From the NCBI GenBank assembly GCA_025459285.1, contig JALOQY010000185.1:1-10619 (forward strand): a stretch of 10,619 nucleotides of DNA, written 5' to 3'. This stretch comes from Planctomycetota bacterium (GTDB taxonomy: Bacteria > Planctomycetota > JAJSAM01). Below the pieces are notes generated by a model, which worked only from the letters and a program-made list of their open reading frames with translations, did not search any database and was not told the DNA's origin. Made by a program: the position numbers and the translations under genes. Every line of letters starts with the position of its first letter. The stretch's first letter is position 1. This document shows positions 44 through 10,619 of this stretch, in pieces.

Positions 44-3000
44 TCAGCGGCGATCCTGCCCCCTCATCGACCGCCGGGCCTTACTGTCTGACTCGCAGTT
101 CGGATGGCCGATCATAAGGCCGGCGATCCCGACCTCGGGGCCCCAGACGGCGAGGCCGAAGCGGCGCTTCGCGAGAGGCGGCGCGGAGAGAGAGCGGAAG
201 ACCTCCACCCCGCCCACCACCACGGAGACCTTGTCCGCGATCCGGGTCACGAGGATCTCCGGGGGATCCGGCCACTCGGCGGGCGCGTCGAGCACGCGGA
301 TCGCGCGCAACACGTCGTAGCGCTCCAGGCGGGCGGTGAACCGGTCCTTGTCGGGGACGAGGATCAACGACCAGCCGGACAGCGTCAGCTCGTCTCCCTC
401 CCCGTCGAACGTCAGCGCCATCTTCGGAACGACGGGCCCTTCGAGAACGACCCGGAGCCGGAAATCGGATGGCGGAGGTCTCTTTTCCGGCGGAAGCCAC
501 AGCAGCGCGGCGGGGTGGTCCTGGGGGAAGCCCGGCCGGACCGAGAAGGGCCGCCATCCCGGGGCCCGCCCATCCTCCTCCCCCCGCAGGAGCTTGTTCC
601 TCAGCGTGAACTTCCCCGCCGCGACCTCGTACCCGGCGCCGAGACTGCGCCGCCCGAAACCGTCGCGGAACGTCTCTTCGAACTTGATCTTCGGCGGGGC
701 CGGAGAGGGATCCGGCGGGTCGAGGTCCTCCACCAGCCCCTCGATCGGCCGGCCGGACGGGTCCGTGAGCCGCAGCGTCAGGCCCGTGGCGCCCCAGCCG
801 TTCGCCACCTTCAGGAGCAGGCGGTTGCGGCCGGCGCCAAGGAGGATCGGCCAGCGCTCGAAGTCGGGGACGAGCGGCCGATCGCCCTGGCTCCGGTCCA
901 CGAACACACCGTTCTGCCAGAGCGCGACCTCGTCGTCGGCGCCGATCCACGCGAGGGCCGGGGTGGCCGCCGGAACCGTCACGTGGGTGAGCGCGTAGGT
1001 GACCGCGTGCTCCGGGTAGCCATAGCGGAACCAGACCGCACCCCGCCCGTCGAGCCGCGCGGAGTGCTCCGCCTCCGGATCCGCGATCCGCCACTTCGCG
1101 GTGTCCCCGGAACTCGCGTACTCCTTCAAGAAGTCGATCTCCTCCTCCGGCGGGAAGACCTCGCAGAGACCCGGGCCCGCGGAGGGGTAGAACGGTCCCA
1201 CGACGCGGAACTTCGTCACGACGCCGAGTTGACGGCGCAGTTCCGCCGCCTCCGCGCTCCCGCCCCGCCGGGTCGCGTCGAGGATCGCGAGGGCCGCCCA
1301 CCGCGCGCGCGCGGCGAGGAACGCGTCGCCGGAGTTGCGGGCGAGCGCGGCGAGGCCGGCCGCGTCGCCCCGCCGGGCCAGTTCGACGAACCACCTCTCC
1401 CGGCCGGTCTCCAGTTCCTCGACCTCGGCACCCGTCGCCCTGGACACCGGGAACCGCATCTCGGCGAGGGTGTCCCAGACCTCCTCCCCCATCGCCTTCG
1501 CGAGCGCCCAGCCGAAGCCGGCCATCAGCCGGTGGGTGAGCCGCGACTTTGAGACGGAATCCCGATAGAGGCGGAAGACCTGCCCCAGCTTCGGCCAGTC
1601 GGCGTGGCCGGCGGGCGCCGGGGCGTGCCGGGCGAGGATCTCCTCGAGCAGTCCTTCGCTCGGTTCGTAGGCCGGGATGAGCCAGTAGGCGTTCTCGCGA
1701 TCGAGGTGGTGCCGGCGGAGGGCGGCGCGGCCGCGCTCCGAGCGGGCGAGGAACACGCCCTTCTCGCCGGCGAACATGTCTTCCACGAAGTGCGCCCCGA
1801 GGTTCGCGAGACCCTCCGTGAGACCGCGCTTGTAGTCGTGAACCGGGCGGGTGTCGTCCACGCAGTGGGTGAGCTCGTGGTAGTAGAGTCCGTTGTCGAC
1901 CCGGACGTCCCTCTGCTCGGGCCTCGCGTCGCCCACCGTGATGAGCATGCCGCCGCCGGTGGCGGGGCCGCTGTACGTCTCCTTGTAGTAGACGATGACC
2001 CTCTCCCCGGGCGGGCAGGGGTCGCGCCCGAACAGGTCGGAGAGGAGCAGGCCGGCCACGTCGAGGCGGTAGGTCGACTCGCGCGGGATGGCCCGGACGA
2101 GCGTCTCCGGCCCGAGGTAGACGAGCCGCGAAGCGGGGATGGTGCCCAGCCGGTGGAACGAGGGATGGTCGGTCTCCTTCGCGAGGCGCGCCTGCTGTTC
2201 GGGGGTCAGGTCGTAGAGCAGGCGCTGCTCGATCCCCGCGAGCTGGCGCTCGGCCTCGGCCTTCTCCTTCCCGGTCGCGGTCCGGCAGAGCTTCGCCTCG
2301 ATCCAGAGCTTCCGCGCCCGCACGAGCCGGCCGGCCTTCGCCTCCCGCGCCGCGGCGGCGGAGATCTTCCCGGCATCCTCCCCCGCCTCGTCGAGCAGCT
2401 TCCGGCAGGCCGCGACATCCTCCTCGGCCATGTCGCGGAGCAGGCGCTGCTTCAGGTCCACCACATCCTTCTGCGCCCGGTCGGAATCGGCGGGCTCTCC
2501 CACCACGCGTTGGTTCCGCCCCTCTTCCACGACGCCGCCGACGACCTCCAGCACGCGGAGGGCGAGCTTCAGCTCCTTCTCCTTCAGGAGCTCGCTCGCG
2601 CGGTCCCGGAGCCATCGGAGCTTCTCTTCCGAAACCAGGGCGCGGATCCGGATCTCCTCGGCGCCGGAGACCGGCGCGCCGGCGGGGGGCGGGAGGGCGA
2701 GCAGCTCCGCCGCCACCGCGAGCTTGCCCGCCAGGTCTACCGACCGCCGGAGCGCTTCCCCGAGGAGTTCGAAGGCCGCCGCCGAGTCCCCCCGCTGCGC
2801 CCGCTCCCGGGCGGCGGTCCGGAGGTCGGCGGCGCTCGCCCGCCCGGAGGCCGCGGGGACGTGACCCACGAGGTACCGGCGGTCTCCGAACGGCGCGTCC
2901 CCGAGGAGGACGAAGCGCCCCTCGTACTCGTTCGTGAGCGTCGGGTCCCGGACGGCCACGAGGATCGAGGCCTCGGGCCGGCCGCCGTCCGCTCCCGCCG

Positions 3001-3301
3001 GGACCACGAGGATCTCCGTCCAGCGGACCGGCTCCCCGGGAACCCACTTCTCCATGGGGACCGGGGGCGCGTGCGAGACGACCGCGAGGAGCCGCCCCGT
3101 CCCGGCCTCCATGGCGACGAGTTCCACCGGCCAGGTGGCCGGCGGCGCGGCGTCGGCGAGGAAGGCGAGCCGGACGGCGATCCGCCCGGTCTCTCCGTAG
3201 AGCGACGCCGTGACCTCCGCCGACGGATGCACGGCGAGCCCCTCATCGGGCGGTGCGGCGAGCGCCGCGGCGCACAGGAGCAGGACGACCGGCACTCTCA
3301 T
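44..3301 (-). CDS. secreted multidomain protein with gluzincin-type zinc metallopeptidase motif (HExxH plus downstream xEGxA) and a central coiled-coil/TPR-like helical region
   Basis: This is the longest ORF in the region, and its composition is protein-like, unlike the Arg/Pro/Gly-rich overlapping ORFs 81..3047(-), 104..1552(+) and 1604..3355(+). The N-terminus MRVPVVLLLCAAALA|APP is a typical Sec signal peptide with an AxA cleavage site and no lipobox. HELTH sits at about aa 500, followed 17 residues later by LTEGLANL, which resembles the third zinc-ligand motif (NEGFA) of MA-clan gluzincins. A Glu/Lys/Arg/Ala-rich helical stretch covers about aa 220-380. The C-terminal ~300 aa are beta-rich and of unknown function. 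The start is ATG at 3299-3301. Confidence 0.7.
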   Translation of the reverse strand: MRVPVVLLLCAAALAAPPDEGLAVHPSAEVTASLYGETGRIAVRLAFLADAAPPATWPVELVAMEAGTGRLLAVVSHAPPVPMEKWVPGEPVRWTEILVVPAGADGGRPEASILVAVRDPTLTNEYEGRFVLLGDAPFGDRRYLVGHVPAASGRASAADLRTAARERAQRGDSAAAFELLGEALRRSVDLAGKLAVAAELLALPPPAGAPVSGAEEIRIRALVSEEKLRWLRDRASELLKEKELKLALRVLEVVGGVVEEGRNQRVVGEPADSDRAQKDVVDLKQRLLRDMAEEDVAACRKLLDEAGEDAGKISAAAAREAKAGRLVRARKLWIEAKLCRTATGKEKAEAERQLAGIEQRLLYDLTPEQQARLAKETDHPSFHRLGTIPASRLVYLGPETLVRAIPRESTYRLDVAGLLLSDLFGRDPCPPGERVIVYYKETYSGPATGGGMLITVGDARPEQRDVRVDNGLYYHELTHCVDDTRPVHDYKRGLTEGLANLGAHFVEDMFAGEKGVFLARSERGRAALRRHHLDRENAYWLIPAYEPSEGLLEEILARHAPAPAGHADWPKLGQVFRLYRDSVSKSRLTHRLMAGFGWALAKAMGEEVWDTLAEMRFPVSRATGAEVEELETGRERWFVELARRGDAAGLAALARNSGDAFLAARARWAALAILDATRRGGSAEAAELRRQLGVVTKFRVVGPFYPSAGPGLCEVFPPEEEIDFLKEYASSGDTAKWRIADPEAEHSARLDGRGAVWFRYGYPEHAVTYALTHVTVPAATPALAWIGADDEVALWQNGVFVDRSQGDRPLVPDFERWPILLGAGRNRLLLKVANGWGATGLTLRLTDPSGRPIEGLVEDLDPPDPSPAPPKIKFEETFRDGFGRRSLGAGYEVAAGKFTLRNKLLRGEEDGRAPGWRPFSVRPGFPQDHPAALLWLPPEKRPPPSDFRLRVVLEGPVVPKMALTFDGEGDELTLSGWSLILVPDKDRFTARLERYDVLRAIRVLDAPAEWPDPPEILVTRIADKVSVVVGGVEVFRSLSAPPLAKRRFGLAVWGPEVGIAGLMIGHPNCESDSKARRSMRGQDRR

Positions 3302-3366: not shown

Positions 3367-4260
3367 TCAGCGAATCGCGATCAGGCGGAAGTAGTAGTGG
3401 AGCGATGGCGCGGGGGCGTGGCGCTCGAGTTCCATGAGGAGCCGCGTGAACTCGTCGGGACGCGGCGGATGGGAGAGGACGACCTCGACCGTCGCGAAAC
3501 CGAAACCGAGCAGGCGGGCCCGGAGGCTCTCCGGGTCGAGGCCGGTGCCGTGGTGGTACTCCGCGAGGCGCTCCCGGGCCACCTCCTCCGGCGAATGGGA
3601 CCGGGCGGACTTCAGCGCGCGGCGCATGGCAAGCCACCAGGAAAACCGCTCGTGGAAGGCGGCGTTCGAGTCGTTGTCGGTGTAGAGGAAGCCCCCCGGG
3701 CGCAGCACCCGCGCGAACTCCCGCAGGCCGTCCGCGGGTTCACGAAGATGGTGGAGCAGCGAGTAAGCCGTCACGCCGTCGAAGCTCGCGTCCTCGAAGG
3801 GGAGCCGCGCCGCGCTGGCCCGGACGAGGTCGCCGTGGAAGCGGGCACACCGGGCGAGCATGCCGAGGGAGACGTCCGCGCCGGCCACGCGGGGGAACCG
3901 CGACCGCAGGAGCTCGAGGACGATCCCGCTGCCGCAGCCGGCGTCGAGGACCTCCCCGGGGCCGGAGACGGTCTCCCTCAGACGGTCGAGCGTCCGCGCG
4001 ACGTCCCCGTAACACTCGTCGGGCCGGGCCGTCTCGAGGTCGTAGTCCGCGGCGTGGGCGTCGTGGAAGATCGCGTTCGCCTCCTCCACGGCCCGCGCCC
4101 CGGGGTCGGCCGAGCGCGCCAGGAGATCCGGGATCCCCTCCGGCGCGAGCGGCCAGCGCCGGCCGGAGCGTTCCGCCACCAGCGCCCCGCCGTCGAACCG
4201 GAGCGGATCGCCGCCGAGCGGACAGCGGAGCTTCCCGAGCAGCCAGTCCGAGAGGGCCAT
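3367..4260 (-). CDS. Trm112-like zinc-ribbon domain fused to class I SAM-dependent methyltransferase (Methyltransf_11/25 type)
   Basis: The N-terminus LLGKLRCPLGGDPLRF matches the Trm112p-like motif. It is followed by VLDAGCGSG (SAM motif I), DVSLGML (post-I), FDGV (motif II) and LRPGG (motif III). The ATG is at 4258-4260, with TAGAAT 6 nt upstream on the minus strand. The stop TGA is at 3367-3369. Confidence 0.85.
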   Translation of the reverse strand: MALSDWLLGKLRCPLGGDPLRFDGGALVAERSGRRWPLAPEGIPDLLARSADPGARAVEEANAIFHDAHAADYDLETARPDECYGDVARTLDRLRETVSGPGEVLDAGCGSGIVLELLRSRFPRVAGADVSLGMLARCARFHGDLVRASAARLPFEDASFDGVTAYSLLHHLREPADGLREFARVLRPGGFLYTDNDSNAAFHERFSWWLAMRRALKSARSHSPEEVARERLAEYHHGTGLDPESLRARLLGFGFATVEVVLSHPPRPDEFTRLLMELERHAPAPSLHYYFRLIAIR

Positions 4261-4266
4261 CGCCGC

Positions 4267-4296
4267 ATTCTATCGGCGGGGCCGGGCGCGGCGCGA
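4267..4296. promoter_or_regulatory. divergent promoter region: -10-like TAGAAT for the minus-strand methyltransferase (4267-4272, read on the minus strand) and TACAAT for the plus-strand FemAB-like gene (4291-4296)
   Basis: This is the only AT-containing stretch in a 57-bp intergenic gap between divergently oriented starts (ATG 4260 on the minus strand, GTG 4318 on the plus strand). Both hexamers are one mismatch from TATAAT. I could not identify a clear -35 element or a Shine-Dalgarno sequence, so transcripts here may be leaderless or have short leaders. Confidence 0.3.
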
Positions 4297-4317
4297 CTGC
4301 TACAATCCGCCTCGCCC

Positions 4318-5322
4318 GTGGATGCCCCCGTCATCGTACGAATCCTCGCCGAGGAACCCGCCGCATGGTGGGACGAGGTGGCGTTGCGCGCACGCTCGAT
4401 CTGGCACACGCGGGACTTCGCCCGACTCCACCGCGAGTGTGGCGGAACGGTCCGGTTCCTCGCCGCTTTCCGTGGGGCAACACCCACCGGGGTCGCCCTC
4501 CTCCTCCTCGGAGGCAGCCGGAAGCTCCCCCTCCTCGACATCCTCTTCGCCCGTGTCGCCCTCGTGCCGGACGAGCCAGCGGCGGGAGACCGGGAGTCGG
4601 CGATCGCGCTCCTCGGCGGCCTCCTCGCCGAGGCCCGGCGGGCGCGGGCGGCGGAGGCGTCGGTGCGCGTGGAGCTGCCGAGGTTCCTCGATGTCCCGGA
4701 CCTCACGGAGCGTGGACTCGCCGCCCGGCGGCGGGGCATCGCCCTGATCGAGGTGCCGCCGGACCCGGCGGCCGTGGAGCGCGGGATGGCCGCCCCCGCC
4801 CGGCGCCAGGCGCGGAAGGCTGCGCGGCTCGGAGTGCGGGTGGAAGTCGCGGACGGCGTGGAGCCCCTCCTCCCGCTCCTCGATCTCTCGTTCCTCCGGT
4901 CCGGCCTGCCGCCGCGGGACCACGGCTATGTCCGCGCGCTTGACCGGTGCCTGCCGGCGGAGGTGCTCGTCGCCCGGAAGGACGGGCGTGACCTGGCGGC
5001 GCTGCTCTGGGTGGCAAGGGGAGAGATGGGGCTCAACATCTTCCACGGCCGCGCGGACGGGGACGTGGAGGGAGCACCGAACCTGCTCCACCGGGAGATG
5101 CTCGAACAGGCCTCCCGGCGAGGCGTCCGGCTCCTCCACACCGGCGACGCCGCGCTTCCCGGGGAGACCGATCCGCGGATCCTCGGGATCACCCGCTTCA
5201 AGGAGTCCCTGGGCTTCGCGATCCACCCGGCCTTCCAGGGCTCGATCGCCCTGCGACCGTTCTCCGCGGGCCTGCGCCGGAGGCTCCTCGCGCTGCGGAC
5301 CGGGGCGGGGAGGCGGCGATGA
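4318..5322 (+). CDS. FemAB/CelD/BioF2-like GNAT-fold (Acetyltransf_6-type) acyl- or aminoacyl-transferase
   Basis: This is the 3' portion of track ORF 3253..5322. The part upstream of 4318 is antisense to the 3367..4260 methyltransferase and is rejected. The first plausible in-frame start is GTG 4318, with CTG 4297 as an alternative; there is no in-frame ATG for more than 150 codons. The protein is MDAPVIVRILAEEPAAWWDEV... (about 334 aa). Its C-terminal half, LLWVARGEMGLNIFHGRADG...NLLHREMLEQASRRGVRLLHTGD, resembles the FemAB-like GNAT family. The TGA stop overlaps the downstream ATG as ATGA. Confidence 0.65.
   Translation: MDAPVIVRILAEEPAAWWDEVALRARSIWHTRDFARLHRECGGTVRFLAAFRGATPTGVALLLLGGSRKLPLLDILFARVALVPDEPAAGDRESAIALLGGLLAEARRARAAEASVRVELPRFLDVPDLTERGLAARRRGIALIEVPPDPAAVERGMAAPARRQARKAARLGVRVEVADGVEPLLPLLDLSFLRSGLPPRDHGYVRALDRCLPAEVLVARKDGRDLAALLWVARGEMGLNIFHGRADGDVEGAPNLLHREMLEQASRRGVRLLHTGDAALPGETDPRILGITRFKESLGFAIHPAFQGSIALRPFSAGLRRRLLALRTGAGRRR
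5309..5313 (+). promoter_or_regulatory. Shine-Dalgarno GGAGG 5 nt upstream of ATG 5319
   Basis: gggGGAGGcggcgATG, read directly from the sequence. It lies inside the 3' end of the upstream gene, which fits translational coupling. Confidence 0.55.
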
Positions 5323-6071
5323 ACCGCGAGGGCGGCGGCCTCGGTCCATGGGCGGAGATCTACCGCCGGCGCGCGGCGCTCGATCCGCTGCGCGCCGTGC
5401 TCGACGAGGGCGATCCCGACAACCGGAAGAACGTCTACGTGGATGCGCTGGACCGGTTCTGGCTGCGCCGGGCGCTGGGTCCGCGCAGGTACGGCGCGGC
5501 GGTGGACCTCGGCTGCGGCGTGGGCCGTCTGACCGGACTGCTCGCGGGGCGGTCACGCCTGACCATCGGGGTCGACGCCTCGGAGGCGCTGCTCGCGGCG
5601 GCGGCGCTCCGGTCCGGACGGTCCGCGGGCCTGGTCCGGGGGGCGCTCGGCGCGCTGCCGCTGCCGGCCGGCCGGAGCGACCTCGTGGTCTGCTGGCAGG
5701 TCCTCCTCCACCTCGTCGGCGACTCCGACATGGCAGCGGCGATCGGAGAAGTCCGGAGACTCCTCGCGCCCGGTGGCCGTGCGGTCTTCGCGGAGCACTT
5801 CGCACCGGGAGCGGAGACGCTGCGTCGCGAAGGAGTCGTCTACCGGTCCGCGCCGGATGTCCTCGGGGCGTTGCGGGCCGCGGGCCTGCGGGTGGAGTCG
5901 GCCTTCGCGATCCGCAAGTCCCCCTCGCGCCTCGTGCACCTGGTCCGCCGGGGCCGCCTCCCCCGCCCGCTGTGGCCGCTTTCGGCGCGTCTCGAGCGCC
6001 TTCTCGCCTTCGCCGGCCGAGCCCCCCCCCTCTACCGCGACTGGCTCGTCGTGGGCCGCCCGTCGACGTGA
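5319..6071 (+). CDS. class I SAM-dependent methyltransferase
   Basis: AVDLGCGVGRL (motif I), GVDASEALL (post-I), SDLVVCWQVLLHL (motif II region) and LLAPGGRAVF (motif III). The start is ATG with an SD, and the stop TGA is at 6069-6071. Confidence 0.85.
   Translation: MNREGGGLGPWAEIYRRRAALDPLRAVLDEGDPDNRKNVYVDALDRFWLRRALGPRRYGAAVDLGCGVGRLTGLLAGRSRLTIGVDASEALLAAAALRSGRSAGLVRGALGALPLPAGRSDLVVCWQVLLHLVGDSDMAAAIGEVRRLLAPGGRAVFAEHFAPGAETLRREGVVYRSAPDVLGALRAAGLRVESAFAIRKSPSRLVHLVRRGRLPRPLWPLSARLERLLAFAGRAPPLYRDWLVVGRPST
6022..6030. repeat. C9 homopolymer tract inside the 3' end of the 5319..6071 methyltransferase CDS
   Basis: gagCCCCCCCCCtctacc, read directly. It encodes ...RAPPLY... in the current frame. 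Confidence 0.9.
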
Positions 6072-6356: not shown

Positions 6357-8696
6357 CTACACGCCGGCGGCCGAGAGGATCGCCTTCTGGACTTCCTTCA
6401 CCGTGAGCCGGCCCACGTTCACCGCGGTGCAGGGCACCTTGCGGAAGAGGCGTTCGAACTGGCGGCGCTGGAGCTCCGTGTGCTCGAGGCTGCGGACGAG
6501 AAGGTGCGGGTTGAGGAACGGGGTCGAGCGCCCGGTGTGGTCACGCCCCTCTTCCACGTGCCGCGTGGCGATGTCCGGAGCGAGCTTCTCCACGTCCTTC
6601 GCGATCGCGTCGCGCCGGAGGAGGATCACCGCCTTGAGGGTCGTCCGCTTCGCGTGCCGGTCCGATCCGAGCCAGTACGGATCGAGCATCGCCCGGCTCG
6701 CCTCCCCGCCGAAGAAGCAGTAGGGCTCGCCGCGATCGAGCGGGCAGACGGCGGACTGCGGGCAGTCCTTGTGGGCGCACTCCTCCTTCGAGGTGGCCAC
6801 GTTCTCGCACTTCGACCGGTCGAAGAGCGGCTCGAGGGCCGGGATCTTCTCCGCCATGTCGGTGGGGACGTAGAGCTTGCGCTCCGGGGTGTCGGCGACG
6901 ACTCCGCCGCCCTGGTGACGCACGAAGACGAAGTCGGTGCTCACGAGTTTCGAGTCGGCGCGCTTCAGGAGTTCCGCCAGGTGGCCGGTCTTGCCGGTCC
7001 CCTCCGGTCCGAGGAGCAGCACGCCCTTCCCGCCGACCTCCACGCACATGCCGCGCACGCCGTGCAGGTCGTGGACGCGCTCCCCCACGTCGGTGACGAG
7101 GCCGAGCGCGAGCGACCGGAGCTGCCCGTAATACGCCGACTTCATGAAGAAGCCGGTGCGGGTCTCGGAGTGGTAGTAGGCCTTCTGGTCCTTACCGGGG
7201 ATCCAGTTCACGCCGTAGAGCACGCCGTGCGGCTCGATGTCGCTCTCGAGCGGCGAGGGGAACCAGTTCTCCACGAAGAAGTCGTAGAGGTGCGGGCTGT
7301 TCGTCCGGAGCTGGACGACGAGCCCGGAGATGTTCGCGTTCCACTCGAAGTACGGCTGGTCGCGCAGGAAGGAGTCGCAGTCCGCGACCATGGCGTCCCG
7401 CGCGGAAAGCGACATCTGGGTCTCGGTCTCCACGAAGCCCTTGACCTGCGTGACCGTGTTCGCGAGCTGCTTCTTCCGCGTCGCGCGCGCCGGCTTCAGC
7501 ATCGCGAGCGCGTCGGCCATGCGGTCCATGGCCTCGGCGATGCGATCGTAGGAGGTGGCGTAGGAGAGCCGGATGCAGTTCGGCCCGCCGAAGGAGTCGC
7601 CGGGCACCACCGCCACGTGGCCGTGGCGCAGGAGGTGGTAGGCGAGCCCGTAGGAGTTGCGGATCGGCGTACCGTCGCACTCCATCCGGTACGTCGGGGT
7701 GACGTTCGGGAAGAGATAGAAGGCCCCCTCCGCGCGGTGGCAGGTGACGCCCGGCATCGTGAGGAGCCGGGAGTGCATCATGTTCCGCCGCCGGAGGAAC
7801 TCCTCCCGCATCCTCACGATCTCGTCCTGCGGCCCGGTGAGGGCGGCGAGCGCCGCCATCTGGCTCACCGTGCAGGGGTTGCTCGTGGTGTGGCTCTGGA
7901 GGCGCCCCATCGCCTGGATGATCTCGGCGGGGCCGGCGGCGTAGCCGATGCGCCAGCCGGTCATCGAGTACGCCTTGCTCATCCCGTTCACGACCACGGT
8001 CTGGGCCTTGATCTTCGGCGAGAGCGCGGCGATCGACACGAATTCGAGACCGTCGTAGACGAGCTTTTCGTAGATCTCGTCGGCGATGATGAGCAACCCC
8101 TCGTCCGCGGCGGCCTCGCAGACCTCCATGAGCTGCGACCTCGTGTAGGCCGCCCCCGTGGGGTTCCCGGGGTTGTTGATGATGACGGCCTTCGTGCTCG
8201 CGGACAGCGCCCCCTTGAGCTGCTTCGCCGTGAGCCGGAAACCGTTCTGCTCGCTGGTATCGACGTAAACGGAGATCCCCTTGGCGAGGGACACCATCTC
8301 CGGGTAGCTCACCCAAAAGGGCGCGGGGATGATGACCTCCTCGTCCTTGTTGATCGTGGCGAGGAGAAGGTGGTAGAGGGACGCCTTCGCCCCGCAGGAG
8401 ACGATGATCTCCGACGACGGGTCGTAGGTGAGGCGGTTGTCGTCCTTCAGCTTCCGGGCGATGGCCCGGCGGAGTTCGATGAGCCCCTCCGCCGCGGTGT
8501 ACTTCGTGTACCCCTTCTCCATCGCCTCGTACGCCGCGAGGCGGATGTTGCGGGGCGTGGGGAAGTCCGGCTCGCCGACGGAGAGGTCGATGACGTCGAT
8601 ACCCTCCGCCTGCATGGCTTTGGCCTTGGCGGAGATCTTCAGCGTCGGCGAGAAGCCGACCCGCTTCATCCGCTCGGCCAGCATGGTTTCGGGCAC
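6357..8696 (-). CDS. class I aspartate/aromatic aminotransferase (PLP-dependent) fused in frame to an HprK-like (PEPCK-superfamily) P-loop kinase domain with a Cys-rich segment
   Basis: Residues 1-~395 contain GEPDFPTP, NPGNPTG and SKAYSMTGWRIGY (PLP-binding Lys), and overall resemble Thermus-type AspAT. They end with the usual ...RLSYATS...AMDRMADAL tail. The ORF then continues for about 380 more residues with no stop. Within that extension, HDLHGVRGMCVEVGGKGVLLLGPEGTGKTGHLAELLKRADSKLVSTDFVFV aligns with the HprK catalytic core pattern LHGV..V.V.G.GVL..G.SG.GKSE.ALEL.KRGH.LVADD.V.I, and the Walker A GPEGTGKT is intact. Further on there is a Cys cluster, C-x9-C-x4-C-x5-C-x8-C (SKCENVATSKEECAHKDCPQSAVCPLDRGEPYC). 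The start is GTG, preceded by AAGGAG at the correct spacing and lying 2 nt after the upstream stop. The complementary-strand ORFs 6480..8849(+) and 7192..8748(-) have a shadow-ORF composition. Confidence 0.9.
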   Translation of the reverse strand: MPETMLAERMKRVGFSPTLKISAKAKAMQAEGIDVIDLSVGEPDFPTPRNIRLAAYEAMEKGYTKYTAAEGLIELRRAIARKLKDDNRLTYDPSSEIIVSCGAKASLYHLLLATINKDEEVIIPAPFWVSYPEMVSLAKGISVYVDTSEQNGFRLTAKQLKGALSASTKAVIINNPGNPTGAAYTRSQLMEVCEAAADEGLLIIADEIYEKLVYDGLEFVSIAALSPKIKAQTVVVNGMSKAYSMTGWRIGYAAGPAEIIQAMGRLQSHTTSNPCTVSQMAALAALTGPQDEIVRMREEFLRRRNMMHSRLLTMPGVTCHRAEGAFYLFPNVTPTYRMECDGTPIRNSYGLAYHLLRHGHVAVVPGDSFGGPNCIRLSYATSYDRIAEAMDRMADALAMLKPARATRKKQLANTVTQVKGFVETETQMSLSARDAMVADCDSFLRDQPYFEWNANISGLVVQLRTNSPHLYDFFVENWFPSPLESDIEPHGVLYGVNWIPGKDQKAYYHSETRTGFFMKSAYYGQLRSLALGLVTDVGERVHDLHGVRGMCVEVGGKGVLLLGPEGTGKTGHLAELLKRADSKLVSTDFVFVRHQGGGVVADTPERKLYVPTDMAEKIPALEPLFDRSKCENVATSKEECAHKDCPQSAVCPLDRGEPYCFFGGEASRAMLDPYWLGSDRHAKRTTLKAVILLRRDAIAKDVEKLAPDIATRHVEEGRDHTGRSTPFLNPHLLVRSLEHTELQRRQFERLFRKVPCTAVNVGRLTVKEVQKAILSAAGV

Positions 8697-8698
8697 CG

Positions 8699-10018
8699 CT
8701 ACTTCTCCTTCTTCTCGTCCGCCTTCCCGGGCTTCTTGCCGGCCTCATCCGCCTCGCCGCCCGTGAGCTTCTTCGCGAGCTTCTTCAGGTCGATACCGCC
8801 GAGGGACTCCGCGATCTCCGGGAGCTGGGCGAGGACCTGCGCCACCTGACCGGTGATCTTCGCCACGCCCTTCCCCTCGCCTCCGGTGTCCACGATGACG
8901 ATCTTGTCGATCTTCGGCGGCCTCGTTGTACTCCTTGTAGGACTCGGCCCGCATCTCCATGGCCTTCGCCTCGGCCTCGCCGCGCAGGCGGATGGCGTCG
9001 GCATCGGCTTCCGCGAGCACCCTCGCCGCGGCGGCCTGCCCCTTCGCCTCGGCCTCGCGCTTGTAGGCCTCGGCCTCGGCCTCGATGTAGACCTGCCTCT
9101 TCCGGGCCTCCGCCGTCTTGTGGACGGTGGCGGTCAGCTCCTTCTCCCGGCGGGCGATCTCGAGTTCCTCGAGTTCGATCAGCTTCTCGCGCTCCACGAT
9201 GCGGACGTTCAGCTCCTCGGCCTTCAACTCCGAGTTCCGCTTCTGGCGCTCCAGTTCGTAGGCAATGTCGGCCTCGGCCTTCTTCTGGTTCACCTCGCCG
9301 GCGAAGCCGGCCCGGGCGGTCTCGAAGTCCCGGTTCGCGCGGGCAACCTCGGTCTCCGCGACGAGCCGCGCGATGTCCCCGGTCTTCCGGGCCTCGGCGG
9401 TCTTGATCGCCGCCTCCTTGTCGGTCTCGGCCTCGGAGATCTCGGCGTCGCGCTTGGCGGCGGCGATCTTCGGCTTGCCGAGCGCCTCCAGATAGCCCTG
9501 GTTGTCGGAGATGTCGATCAGGGTGAAGGAGAGCAGGTCGAGCCCCATCCGCCGGAGCTCGTTCTGCGTGGCCTTCTCCACCTTCTCGTTGAACTCGTCG
9601 CGCTGCTGGTAGATGTCCTCCACCGCGTGCGAGCCGAGGTAGGCGCGGAGCGTCCCCTCCATCACCTGGGAGCCGGTGTCGCGGATCGCCGCGGCGCCGC
9701 CGCCGAGGAACTGCTCGGCGGCCATCCGGATCGCCTGCTCGGAGGAGCCGACCTTGAGCTGCGCCTGGCCGACGGCGTTGAGCTGCACGCCGCCCTTGGT
9801 CAGCGCGTCGGTGACCTTCGCCTGCACGGTGTAGGTTTCCAGCGGCAGCACCTGCGCGGTCTGGAACAGCGGCAGGACGAAGGCGCCGCCGCCGATCCGC
9901 ATCTTGTAGCCCACCGTCCGGACCGTGCCGTCCACCTCGCGGACCTGCTGGCGCAGACCGCCCGAGACGATGAGCACCTCGAGAGGCCGAAAACGCCCCA
10001 GAATCCGATCGCAACCAT
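8699..10018 (-). pseudogene. flotillin family protein (SPFH/band-7, FloT/reggie-like) with the reading frame interrupted twice
   Basis: Track ORF 8745..9977(-) aligns well to B. subtilis FloT and human flotillin-1 across the SPFH and EA-repeat regions (EGTLRAYLGSHAVEDIYQQRDEFNEKV...LGKPKIAAAKRDAEISEAETDKEAAIKTAEA). The true ATG is at 10018, preceded by AGGAGA. It encodes MVAIGFWGVF and then falls out of frame at the A4 run 9990..9993; adding one A would give MVAIGFWGVFRPLEVLIVSGG. After ...ESYKEYNEAA, near 8912..8924, the flotillin C-terminus KIDKIVIVDTGGEGKGVAKITGQVAQVLAQLPEIAESLGG... continues in another frame, as track ORF 8699..9004. About 20 residues of the usual LPE.A...PLS segment are missing. 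Confidence 0.75.
8705..8710 (-). promoter_or_regulatory. Shine-Dalgarno AAGGAG for the aminotransferase-kinase fusion, embedded in the last codons of the flotillin gene
   Basis: The minus strand reads aagAAGGAGaagTAGcgGTG: the SD sits 8 nt before the GTG, with the flotillin stop TAG in between. Confidence 0.5.
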
Positions 10019-10021
10019 GAC

Positions 10022-10027
10022 GGTCTC
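10022..10027 (-). promoter_or_regulatory. Shine-Dalgarno AGGAGA 4-5 nt upstream of the flotillin ATG at 10018
   Basis: The minus strand reads ctAGGAGAccgtcATG. The stop (TAG) of the upstream PEPCK-like gene overlaps this element. Confidence 0.5.
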
Positions 10028-10619
10028 CTAGAAGTTCCTGCCCCCGAGCGGACGGCGCGGCCTCCGGGCCGGCTCGTAGTCCGCGAAGTAATCGCGGCGC
10101 GGGGCCTCGCGGCGCCCGGGGTCCTTCTTCTCTTCCGGTAAACTGAATGCCACCTGCACCTTCGCCGGGCGGGCGATCCCGTAGGACTCCTCCGCCGCCC
10201 GGATGATCTCCGGGTCGAGCCCCTCGGCGGCGATCTCGGCGGTGAACTCCCGCCTCCCGTCCACGATGTCCCTCACGTAGGCCTCGATCTGGTCCTTCGG
10301 ATAGAGCTTCTCCACCTCGTAGGCCGAGAGGTCGAAGCCCTCCACGCGACGGATCTCGCGAGTTCCGAGCCGGCCATCGGCATACTCGTTCGTGCCGCGG
10401 AGGTCGCCGCGCTGGATCGCGGCCATCAGCTCGATCGGGACGCGCGCCGCCTTGCGCACGAAGTGCTTCTTCTTGAGTCCGCCCTCGATCCTCTCCTCGA
10501 GGATCTCCCCCATGCCGCCGGTGTTGTACTGGAAGAACTTCACCTTGCCGGGATACGTGGCGCAGAGGGACATCACGATGTCCCGGAAACGGTTCACCTT
10601 GAACTGATGAGGAAGGTGC
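10028..10619 (-). CDS. PEP carboxykinase (ATP)-like protein, C-terminal part; the ORF continues upstream past the window edge
   Basis: The track ORF begins at GTG 10597, but the frame stays open to 10619 (...HLPHQFKVNRFRDIVMSLCATYPGKVKFFQYNTGGMGE...). The pattern LHP.QY....L...M......KV.F.QYNTGW.G...., followed by the R..L.A...G and LYPKD(Q) region, resembles the C-terminal lobe of ATP-dependent PEPCK ([32 protein letters not shown]... in E. coli PckA). It carries a C-terminal extension of about 50 aa. The family assignment is of moderate confidence. Confidence 0.55.
   Translation of the reverse strand, partial: HLPHQFKVNRFRDIVMSLCATYPGKVKFFQYNTGGMGEILEERIEGGLKKKHFVRKAARVPIELMAAIQRGDLRGTNEYADGRLGTREIRRVEGFDLSAYEVEKLYPKDQIEAYVRDIVDGRREFTAEIAAEGLDPEIIRAAEESYGIARPAKVQVAFSLPEEKKDPGRREAPRRDYFADYEPARRPRRPLGGRNF

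Follow-up and report, generated by a model that had tools for sequence, protein, structure and literature searches.

Our analysis showed that the flotillin gene of the window, by which we mean the whole of a 10,619-bp Planctomycetota MAG contig, is broken by two deletions of 67 and 62 bp and by nothing else. Translation of positions 10018..8699 in three frames resolves the gene, which lies on the minus strand, into an N-terminal segment in frame 1 (10018..9982), a body in frame 3 (9981..8917) and a C-terminal segment again in frame 1 (8916..8699), and bears out the initial annotation in its view that the gene is disrupted near both ends (Table 1). The gene belongs to the ordinary FloT type of bacterial flotillins and stands in the middle of a conserved PEPCK-like/flotillin/aminotransferase-P-loop operon of an uncultured Planctomycetota bacterium. 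It is on balance probable that the two deletions are defects of this single assembly and that the organism itself carries an intact 482-aa gene.

Table 1. Positions of the flotillin gene segments, the two deletion junctions and adjoining features in the window.
Feature	Position	Strand	Basis or remark
AGGAG Shine-Dalgarno (SD) of flotillin	10025..10029	-	Sequence; overlaps the TAG stop (10028-10030) of the upstream PEPCK_ATP-like gene
Flotillin codons 1-12 (MVAIGFWGVFGL) and first base of codon 13	9982..10018	-	Same as L072 618-654 and L076
Deletion 1 junction, 67 nt missing	9981..9982	-	Against L072 655-721; microhomology 0 nt
Flotillin body, 1065 nt, 355 codons, residues 36-390 (EVLIVSGG...EYNEAA)	8917..9981	-	100% identity to L072 and L076
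Deletion 2 junction, 62 nt missing	8916..8917	-	Against L072 1787-1848; boundary ambiguous by 2 nt (up to 8915/8914)
Flotillin C-terminal 71 codons (KIDKIVIVDTGG...KEK) and TAG (8699-8701)	8699..8916	-	Native ATG frame; beta-barrel strand and C-terminal domain; aligned to human flotillin-1
410-aa ORF MCU0726700.1 (P0121, 'SPFH domain-containing protein')	8745..9977	-	NCBI annotation
72-codon ORF from the native SD and ATG, 12 native and 60 out-of-frame residues	9800..10018	-	Translation
AAGGAG (8710-8705) in the last flotillin codons, TAG, 2 nt, GTG (8696-8694) of the 779-aa aminotransferase/P-loop fusion gene	8694..8710	-	Sequence
Terminal 18 nt of the contig, diverging from the PEPCK-like gene	10602..10619	-	Comparison with relatives

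The size and position of the lesions follow from comparison with intact alleles. A protein search with the stitched sequence returned Planctomycetota flotillins of 458-495 aa, the best of which (P0001) is 92% identical over the aligned residues; the protein alignment leaves two gaps in the window copy, one of about 22 residues after GVFGL and one of 21 residues after YNEAA, and on the contig that encodes P0001 (L001, 92.6% DNA identity) these gaps measure exactly 67 and 62 nt. Much closer alleles are found on two further contigs. The first (L072; JGI 3300037461, Ga0392394_0017507, 7,876 bp), retrieved by exact look-up of neighbouring window proteins, aligns to the window over 7,713 bases with one mismatch, 6 nt from its own end, and carries 67 additional nt between 9982 and 9981 and 62 additional nt between 8917 and 8916. 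The second, an independent contig (L076; NCBI JAOQIA010107513.1), has one SNP in 2,755 bases and contains both the 67-nt and the 62-nt stretches. The two contigs code for one and the same intact flotillin of 482 aa (P0122), to whose allele every retained base of the window gene is identical (100% nucleotide identity), and no 1-nt indel separates the window from L072 across 7.7 kb. The only point differences from these sister contigs lie at 8529 (C against T in L076) and 2894 (G against A in L072, the mismatch near its end); they indicate slight population microdiversity or contig-end error.

These alleles also settle how the 5' lesion is to be read. The initial annotation had ascribed it to a +1 slip at an A4 run (9990-9993; T4/A4), which sits unchanged within the piece that encodes codons 1-12. 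The length of the run does not differ in L072, L076 or L001, and the lesion is the 67-nt deletion that begins 8 nt downstream. With one A added, the frame is indeed continuous from the ATG into the body, but the 'restored' MVAIGFWGVFRPLEVLIVSGG occurs in no homologue: the undisrupted N-terminal sequence is MVAIGFWGVFGL-LLLVLFVALLVVLALNYRKVGPN-EVLIVSGG, and the 'FRPLEV' of the repaired version is GL plus two leftover bases read in the wrong frame. Such a repaired protein would moreover be without a 23-residue membrane-helix segment that is itself missing only in P0021 and P0022 among 120 homologues. Reads with an extra A in the run, together with a different sequence at 8912-8924, had been named as what would refute the disruption; the intact alleles have no extra A, but 67 and 62 extra bases. 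A homopolymer slip at A4 is thus refuted, and a model that combines it with a separate 3' frame switch and a 20-aa loss deserves next to no credence, although its 3' half is correct. There, the lesion had been described as more than a homopolymer slip, with the loss of some 20 conserved residues at ggcggcc (8916-8922), and the deletion of 62 nt and 21 residues does fall inside that string, as placed. The case illustrates that a plausible homopolymer-slip repair made from the sequence alone can be wrong once a near-identical allele is compared.

The two deletions remove distinct parts of the protein. Deletion 1 begins at the second base of codon 13, ends at the second base of codon 35 and takes away residues LLLVLFVALLVVLALNYRKVGPN, i.e. 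most of the N-terminal membrane helix. In the AlphaFold model of P0001 (mean pLDDT 75), an N-terminal hydrophobic helix spans residues 2-27 and the first SPFH strand residues 29-49, with further helices at 198-262 and 265-410; intact relatives have this membrane anchor (helix 2-27), whereas the window copy keeps residues 1-12 and then changes frame. This segment is missing in only two of the 120 homologues, both of them fragments (P0021 and P0022, 375 and 380 aa, 80% query cover). Deletion 2 removes residues 391-411 (VYQMLIEKLPELARAVSEPLS), the LPELA..SEPL segment that precedes the oligomerising beta-strand. The segment is kept in 120/120 homologues, with P400, A403, E408 and P409 invariant, and is lost from the window; the shorter C-terminal variant that the initial annotation had proposed to look for among homologues does not occur in this set. 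A natural short variant was accordingly rejected, with segment 2 present throughout and segment 1 absent from the two fragments only.

The domain matches tell the same story. Both the window ORF (P0121, E = 6.8e-23) and the intact protein (P0122, E = 4.5e-24) exceed the gathering score for the SPFH/Band 7 family (PF01145), and the flotillin C-terminal family (PF15975) is matched by P0122 (E = 8.3e-10, residues 346-432) and not by P0121, because deletion 2 splits the domain and leaves its distal half in another frame. The body between the deletions comprises the SPFH/Band 7 domain and the long EA-rich wall helix and is read in a frame that differs from that of both ends. Full-length homologues are 458-495 aa long, and in place of one continuous ORF of about 460-495 aa the window has three frame segments; the long EA-rich helix and the full-length similarity to solved flotillins are both found, by way of the intact allele and the 100%-identical body (9981-8917). 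It is only through the two deletions that the window copy falls short of the flotillin architecture. Together these remove 129 nt, or 43 codons, and the two gene ends therefore share a frame, a coincidence that has no functional meaning because frame 1 is full of stops across the body.

To judge from its sequence, the gene as written cannot make a flotillin and is dead in this form. Translation from the native SD (AGGAG 10029-10025) and ATG (10016-10018) ends after 72 codons at a stop at 9800. The annotated 410-aa ORF begins with an internal GTG, codon V37 in the intact protein, upstream of which, at 9977, sequence inspection found no SD, and it ends in a 56-aa out-of-frame, arginine/glycine-rich tail (TGA 8745-8747); the remnant is without the membrane helix, the cap-helix segment, the beta-barrel strand and the C-terminal domain. 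One might still suppose that the 410-aa ORF is a genuine soluble SPFH protein, or that the two frame changes are decoded by programmed frameshifting, since the ORF is open and annotated by NCBI and the 43 codons lost leave the ends in the same frame. We regard a functional shortened variant of this kind as very improbable: its GTG lacks an SD, its tail comes from reading the true C-terminus out of frame, the body is interrupted by many stops in frame 1, the junctions show no slippery site or structure, and the same architecture was not found in 120 relatives or in two further database searches.

The junctions themselves restrict the mechanisms by which the deletions could have arisen. At deletion 1, TTTTCGGCCTCT is joined to CGAGGTGCTCATCG (9982/9981), and at deletion 2, GAGGCCGC is joined to CGAAGATCGACAAG (8917/8916). 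Microhomology amounts to 0 nt at the first junction and 0-2 nt at the second, no direct repeats with a spacing of 67 or 62 flank the deletions (the nearest imperfect repeats are spaced 63, 66 and 72), and DNA folds compared with shuffled sequence gave no hairpins at the junctions beyond those of the shuffles (z = 0.1 to 1.4). Direct-repeat slippage, a k-mer short-circuit or collapse, and hairpin-mediated skipping are therefore excluded. Neither deletion lies within the EA-rich repeat region, so that the initial annotation was mistaken in tracing a possible artefact to that region; the sites are outside it and have no flanking repeats. CGAGG/CGAAG just past both junctions and a common CCCGAAC were seen by eye, but were judged to be post hoc and without significance. 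As they stand, the junctions fit either blunt end joining in the cell or an assembly join over short coverage gaps.

The initial annotation had offered a decaying gene and an assembly artefact as its two possibilities, and these are still the live options. We lean modestly towards the second, in which the organism's gene is intact and both deletions were made in assembly, for example if, in a region of low coverage and 70% GC, short gaps in coverage had been joined or closed without the missing bases. The intact allele is present in two independent assemblies (L072 and L076), and among 15 billion proteins the deleted form occurs once only. It did not recur in the further searches either: the junction-1 string was not found in viral_contigs, the out-of-frame tail had no match in the protein database, a search with the intact C-terminus gave no near-identical fragments, exact look-ups of the 410-aa ORF found no contig, and protein-pattern scans of genome_contigs and metagenome_contigs gave neither the source contig nor a relative above 81% identity. 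Since the split from the intact allele the window has acquired zero substitutions, which makes two independent real deletions a priori very unlikely. Flotillin is under purifying selection in the lineage (dN/dS 0.19, compared with 0.16 and 0.11 in neighbouring genes), none of the usual biological slippage mechanisms fits junctions that are without repeats, hairpins or microhomology of more than 2 nt, and the flanking genes are colinear with those of L002 with 0-1 gaps. Several properties of the contig argue against an artefact, however. A junction absent from every read is not something that a de Bruijn graph assembler would normally produce, the junctions have no common k-mer able to short-circuit the graph, the contig contains no Ns, the lack of other 1-nt indels in 7.7 kb speaks for an otherwise high consensus quality, and two lesions in one gene beside intact neighbours have the classic look of a real pseudogene.

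These same properties make a real, very recent null allele a serious candidate, if one that falls short of an even chance. Here, a sub-population would have lost flotillin function by two end-joining-type deletions while the intact allele persists in other samples, perhaps in the course of a single complex repair and perhaps along with a breakpoint in the PEPCK-like gene at 10601/10602. Frame-disrupting lesions relative to intact orthologues, as expected of a pseudogene, are present, the output of a graph assembler requires the junction sequences to be in the reads, and non-homologous end joining typically leaves blunt junctions of this kind, with 0-2 nt of microhomology. Both lesions lie in one gene with 6 kb of neighbours untouched, as would follow if only a gene that was already dead could tolerate a second lesion. 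The SNP at 8529 in L076 testifies to microdiversity in the population, and flotillin knock-outs are viable in cultured bacteria. Against a null allele, zero substitutions over 7.7 kb leave almost no time for two independent deletions of at least 60 bp within 1.1 kb, the deleted form is found once and both other assemblies are intact, the anomalies cluster at the contig end, and the lineage gives no sign of relaxed selection; the comparison of the window with the intact allele, with its zero substitutions, holds nothing on which selection could be measured, and the dN/dS of 0.19 is that of the lineage. Were the null allele real, flotillin would be an incipient pseudogene in this population, and the downstream aminotransferase-P-loop gene would keep its SD and might suffer from polarity.

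A more specific version, to which we give little weight, holds that the deletions are real and arose as one event or as a selected series, so that a natural sub-population knocked out flotillin by two blunt end-joining deletions within 1.1 kb, perhaps together with the PEPCK-like breakpoint, and with no other change in 7.7 kb. Such a pattern would point to clustered double-strand breaks (from nuclease self-targeting, or from desiccation or radiation damage repaired by NHEJ) or, alternatively, to strong recent selection against flotillin, e.g. as a phage or toxin dependency factor.

The end of the contig bears on both the assembly artefact and the null allele. The terminal 18 nt (10602-10619; minus strand GCACCTTCCTCATCAGTTC, 53% GC) meet AAGGTGAACC at a junction at 10601/10602 and do not continue the PEPCK_ATP-like gene, unlike the corresponding sequences of L072, L001 and L002; L072 stops 34 nt past the same point. 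These 18 nt had no match in the sequences compared. We tried them as a third deletion junction, drawn from further upstream in the PEPCK gene, and rejected this when no match with up to 5 mismatches was found in L001, L002 or L072. A branch in the assembly graph, a gap in coverage, a chimeric tip and a real breakpoint are all conceivable origins of this end. Together with the two deletions it makes three anomalies, all confined to the final 1.7 kb of the contig, and the other 6 kb in common with L072 have just one mismatch, a distribution that favours an assembly defect. L072 breaks within 34 nt of the same end and per-sample contigs of the organism are only 1.9-2.9 kb long, which suggests thin coverage here; on the other hand, an L072 end so close (no more than 34 nt) to the PEPCK divergence of the window is also what a true two-haplotype branch in both samples would give, as a null allele would have it.

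The surroundings of the gene are well conserved. The order PEPCK_ATP-like gene, flotillin, 779-aa aminotransferase/P-loop fusion and a protein of about 1,080 aa is the same in L002 (GCA_016277765.1) and is covered only in part by L001 and L072. The upstream gene encodes a 619-aa PEPCK_ATP-family protein (window 10028-10601, minus strand; L001 5254-7113), whose stop overlaps the flotillin SD. The coding strand between the PEPCK-like, flotillin and fusion genes showed nothing resembling a promoter or a terminator, and the three appear to form one operon across these Planctomycetota. The intact allele P0122 and the 92%-identical P0001 lie in the same operon as the window copy (PEPCK_ATP-like gene, flotillin and a 775/779-aa aminotransferase fusion), from which the window copy differs, relative to P0122, by the lack of 67 nt (residues 13-35) and 62 nt (residues 391-411) and of a continuous ORF.

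The fusion protein (6357-8696, minus strand) consists of a class I/II aminotransferase domain (PF00155, E = 5e-75) and a C-terminal domain of about 380 aa with a P-loop (GPEGTGKTG) and a sub-threshold HPr-kinase-C match (E = 2e-5). Its gene is directly downstream of flotillin in L002, and was found in L001 and L072 too. The initial annotation correctly located its SD within the last flotillin codons (AAGGAG 8710-8705). L001 and L002 share the layout of AAGGAG, TAG, 2 nt and GTG, and in L003, which is more distant, a similar series of GGGAG, a stop and GTG is found. This bears out the arrangement given in the initial annotation, but lends no support to its statement that the downstream gene depends on ribosomes that reach the flotillin 3' end. 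An SD of this strength, 8 nt ahead of the GTG, can also load ribosomes by itself, without those that translate flotillin. The 779-aa protein is colinear with its L002 orthologue at 80% identity and with one gap. We had entertained the idea that the aminotransferase-P-loop fusion was itself a deletion product; the colinear 779-aa orthologue in L002 rules this out.

Further downstream, a 1,085-aa protein (44-3301, minus strand) has an N-terminal hydrophobic leader and a HELTH (HExxH-type) motif near residue 475, gives no Pfam match and aligns gap-free and colinear, at 67% identity, with a 1,077-aa orthologue in L002; by these features it may be an uncharacterised secreted metalloprotease-like protein. 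Between it and the fusion gene lies a block of about 3 kb (3367-6071) that encodes two SAM-dependent methyltransferases of 297 aa (minus strand) and 250 aa (plus strand) and an Acetyltransf_6/FemAB-like protein of 334 aa (plus strand). The fusion and 1,085-aa genes adjoin in L002 (7-nt gap), and the block was therefore either inserted in this lineage or lost from L002. Among the fusion, 1,085-aa and flotillin genes, only flotillin is damaged.

The value of these results lies mainly in curation, and their biological weight is small. MCU0726700.1 is a remnant, truncated and shifted in frame, whose last 56 aa are nonsense, and it is unfit to serve as a flotillin sequence; the population's true product is the 482-aa P0122. 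C-terminal flotillin fragments of 95-222 aa (P0135, P0138, P0158, P0167, P0215 and P0228) stand as separate genes on contigs of 19-306 kb in other assemblies, and flotillin genes that are split or shifted in frame may thus be met with fairly often in metagenome assemblies. The flotillin family, its architecture and the breakage of genes by small deletions are all already known, and the locus is no new kind of system.

Among known flotillins, FloT (YuaG) of Bacillus subtilis has an N-terminal membrane anchor, an SPFH domain, an EA-rich coiled coil and a conserved C-terminal motif (...MLPEYAKQAAAPLSNIDKITVVDTGG), which is the same architecture as that of the intact protein described here; it is a distant relative from a different gene context, likened to our protein by that architecture. 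Residues 29-463 of the intact allele can be aligned to human flotillin-1 and flotillin-2 (PDB 9l3g and 9bq2; E = 1e-81 to 3e-74, with E = 1e-81 for flotillin-1), and VYQMLIEKLPELARAVSEPLS aligns to a 21-residue segment of Flot1 directly before a strand (Flot1 ANKITLV). The human flotillins form a cage of 44 subunits, in which a wall helix is followed by a cap helix, a strand of a 44-stranded beta-barrel and then the C-terminal domain, and in which this end of the protein mediates oligomerisation (PMC11260169). From the alignment and this topology, the deleted segment 391-411 probably corresponds to the cap helix. The human flotillins and the intact allele are alike in their SPFH domains, long wall helix, cap-helix segment, beta-barrel strand and C-terminal helix, and they differ in their attachment to the membrane, the bacterial protein having an N-terminal transmembrane-type helix (AF2 helix 2-27) and the human flotillins a lipidated hydrophobic SPFH1 surface. 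Compared with the human proteins, the copy in the window lacks the segment that leads into the beta-strand and has the strand in another frame.
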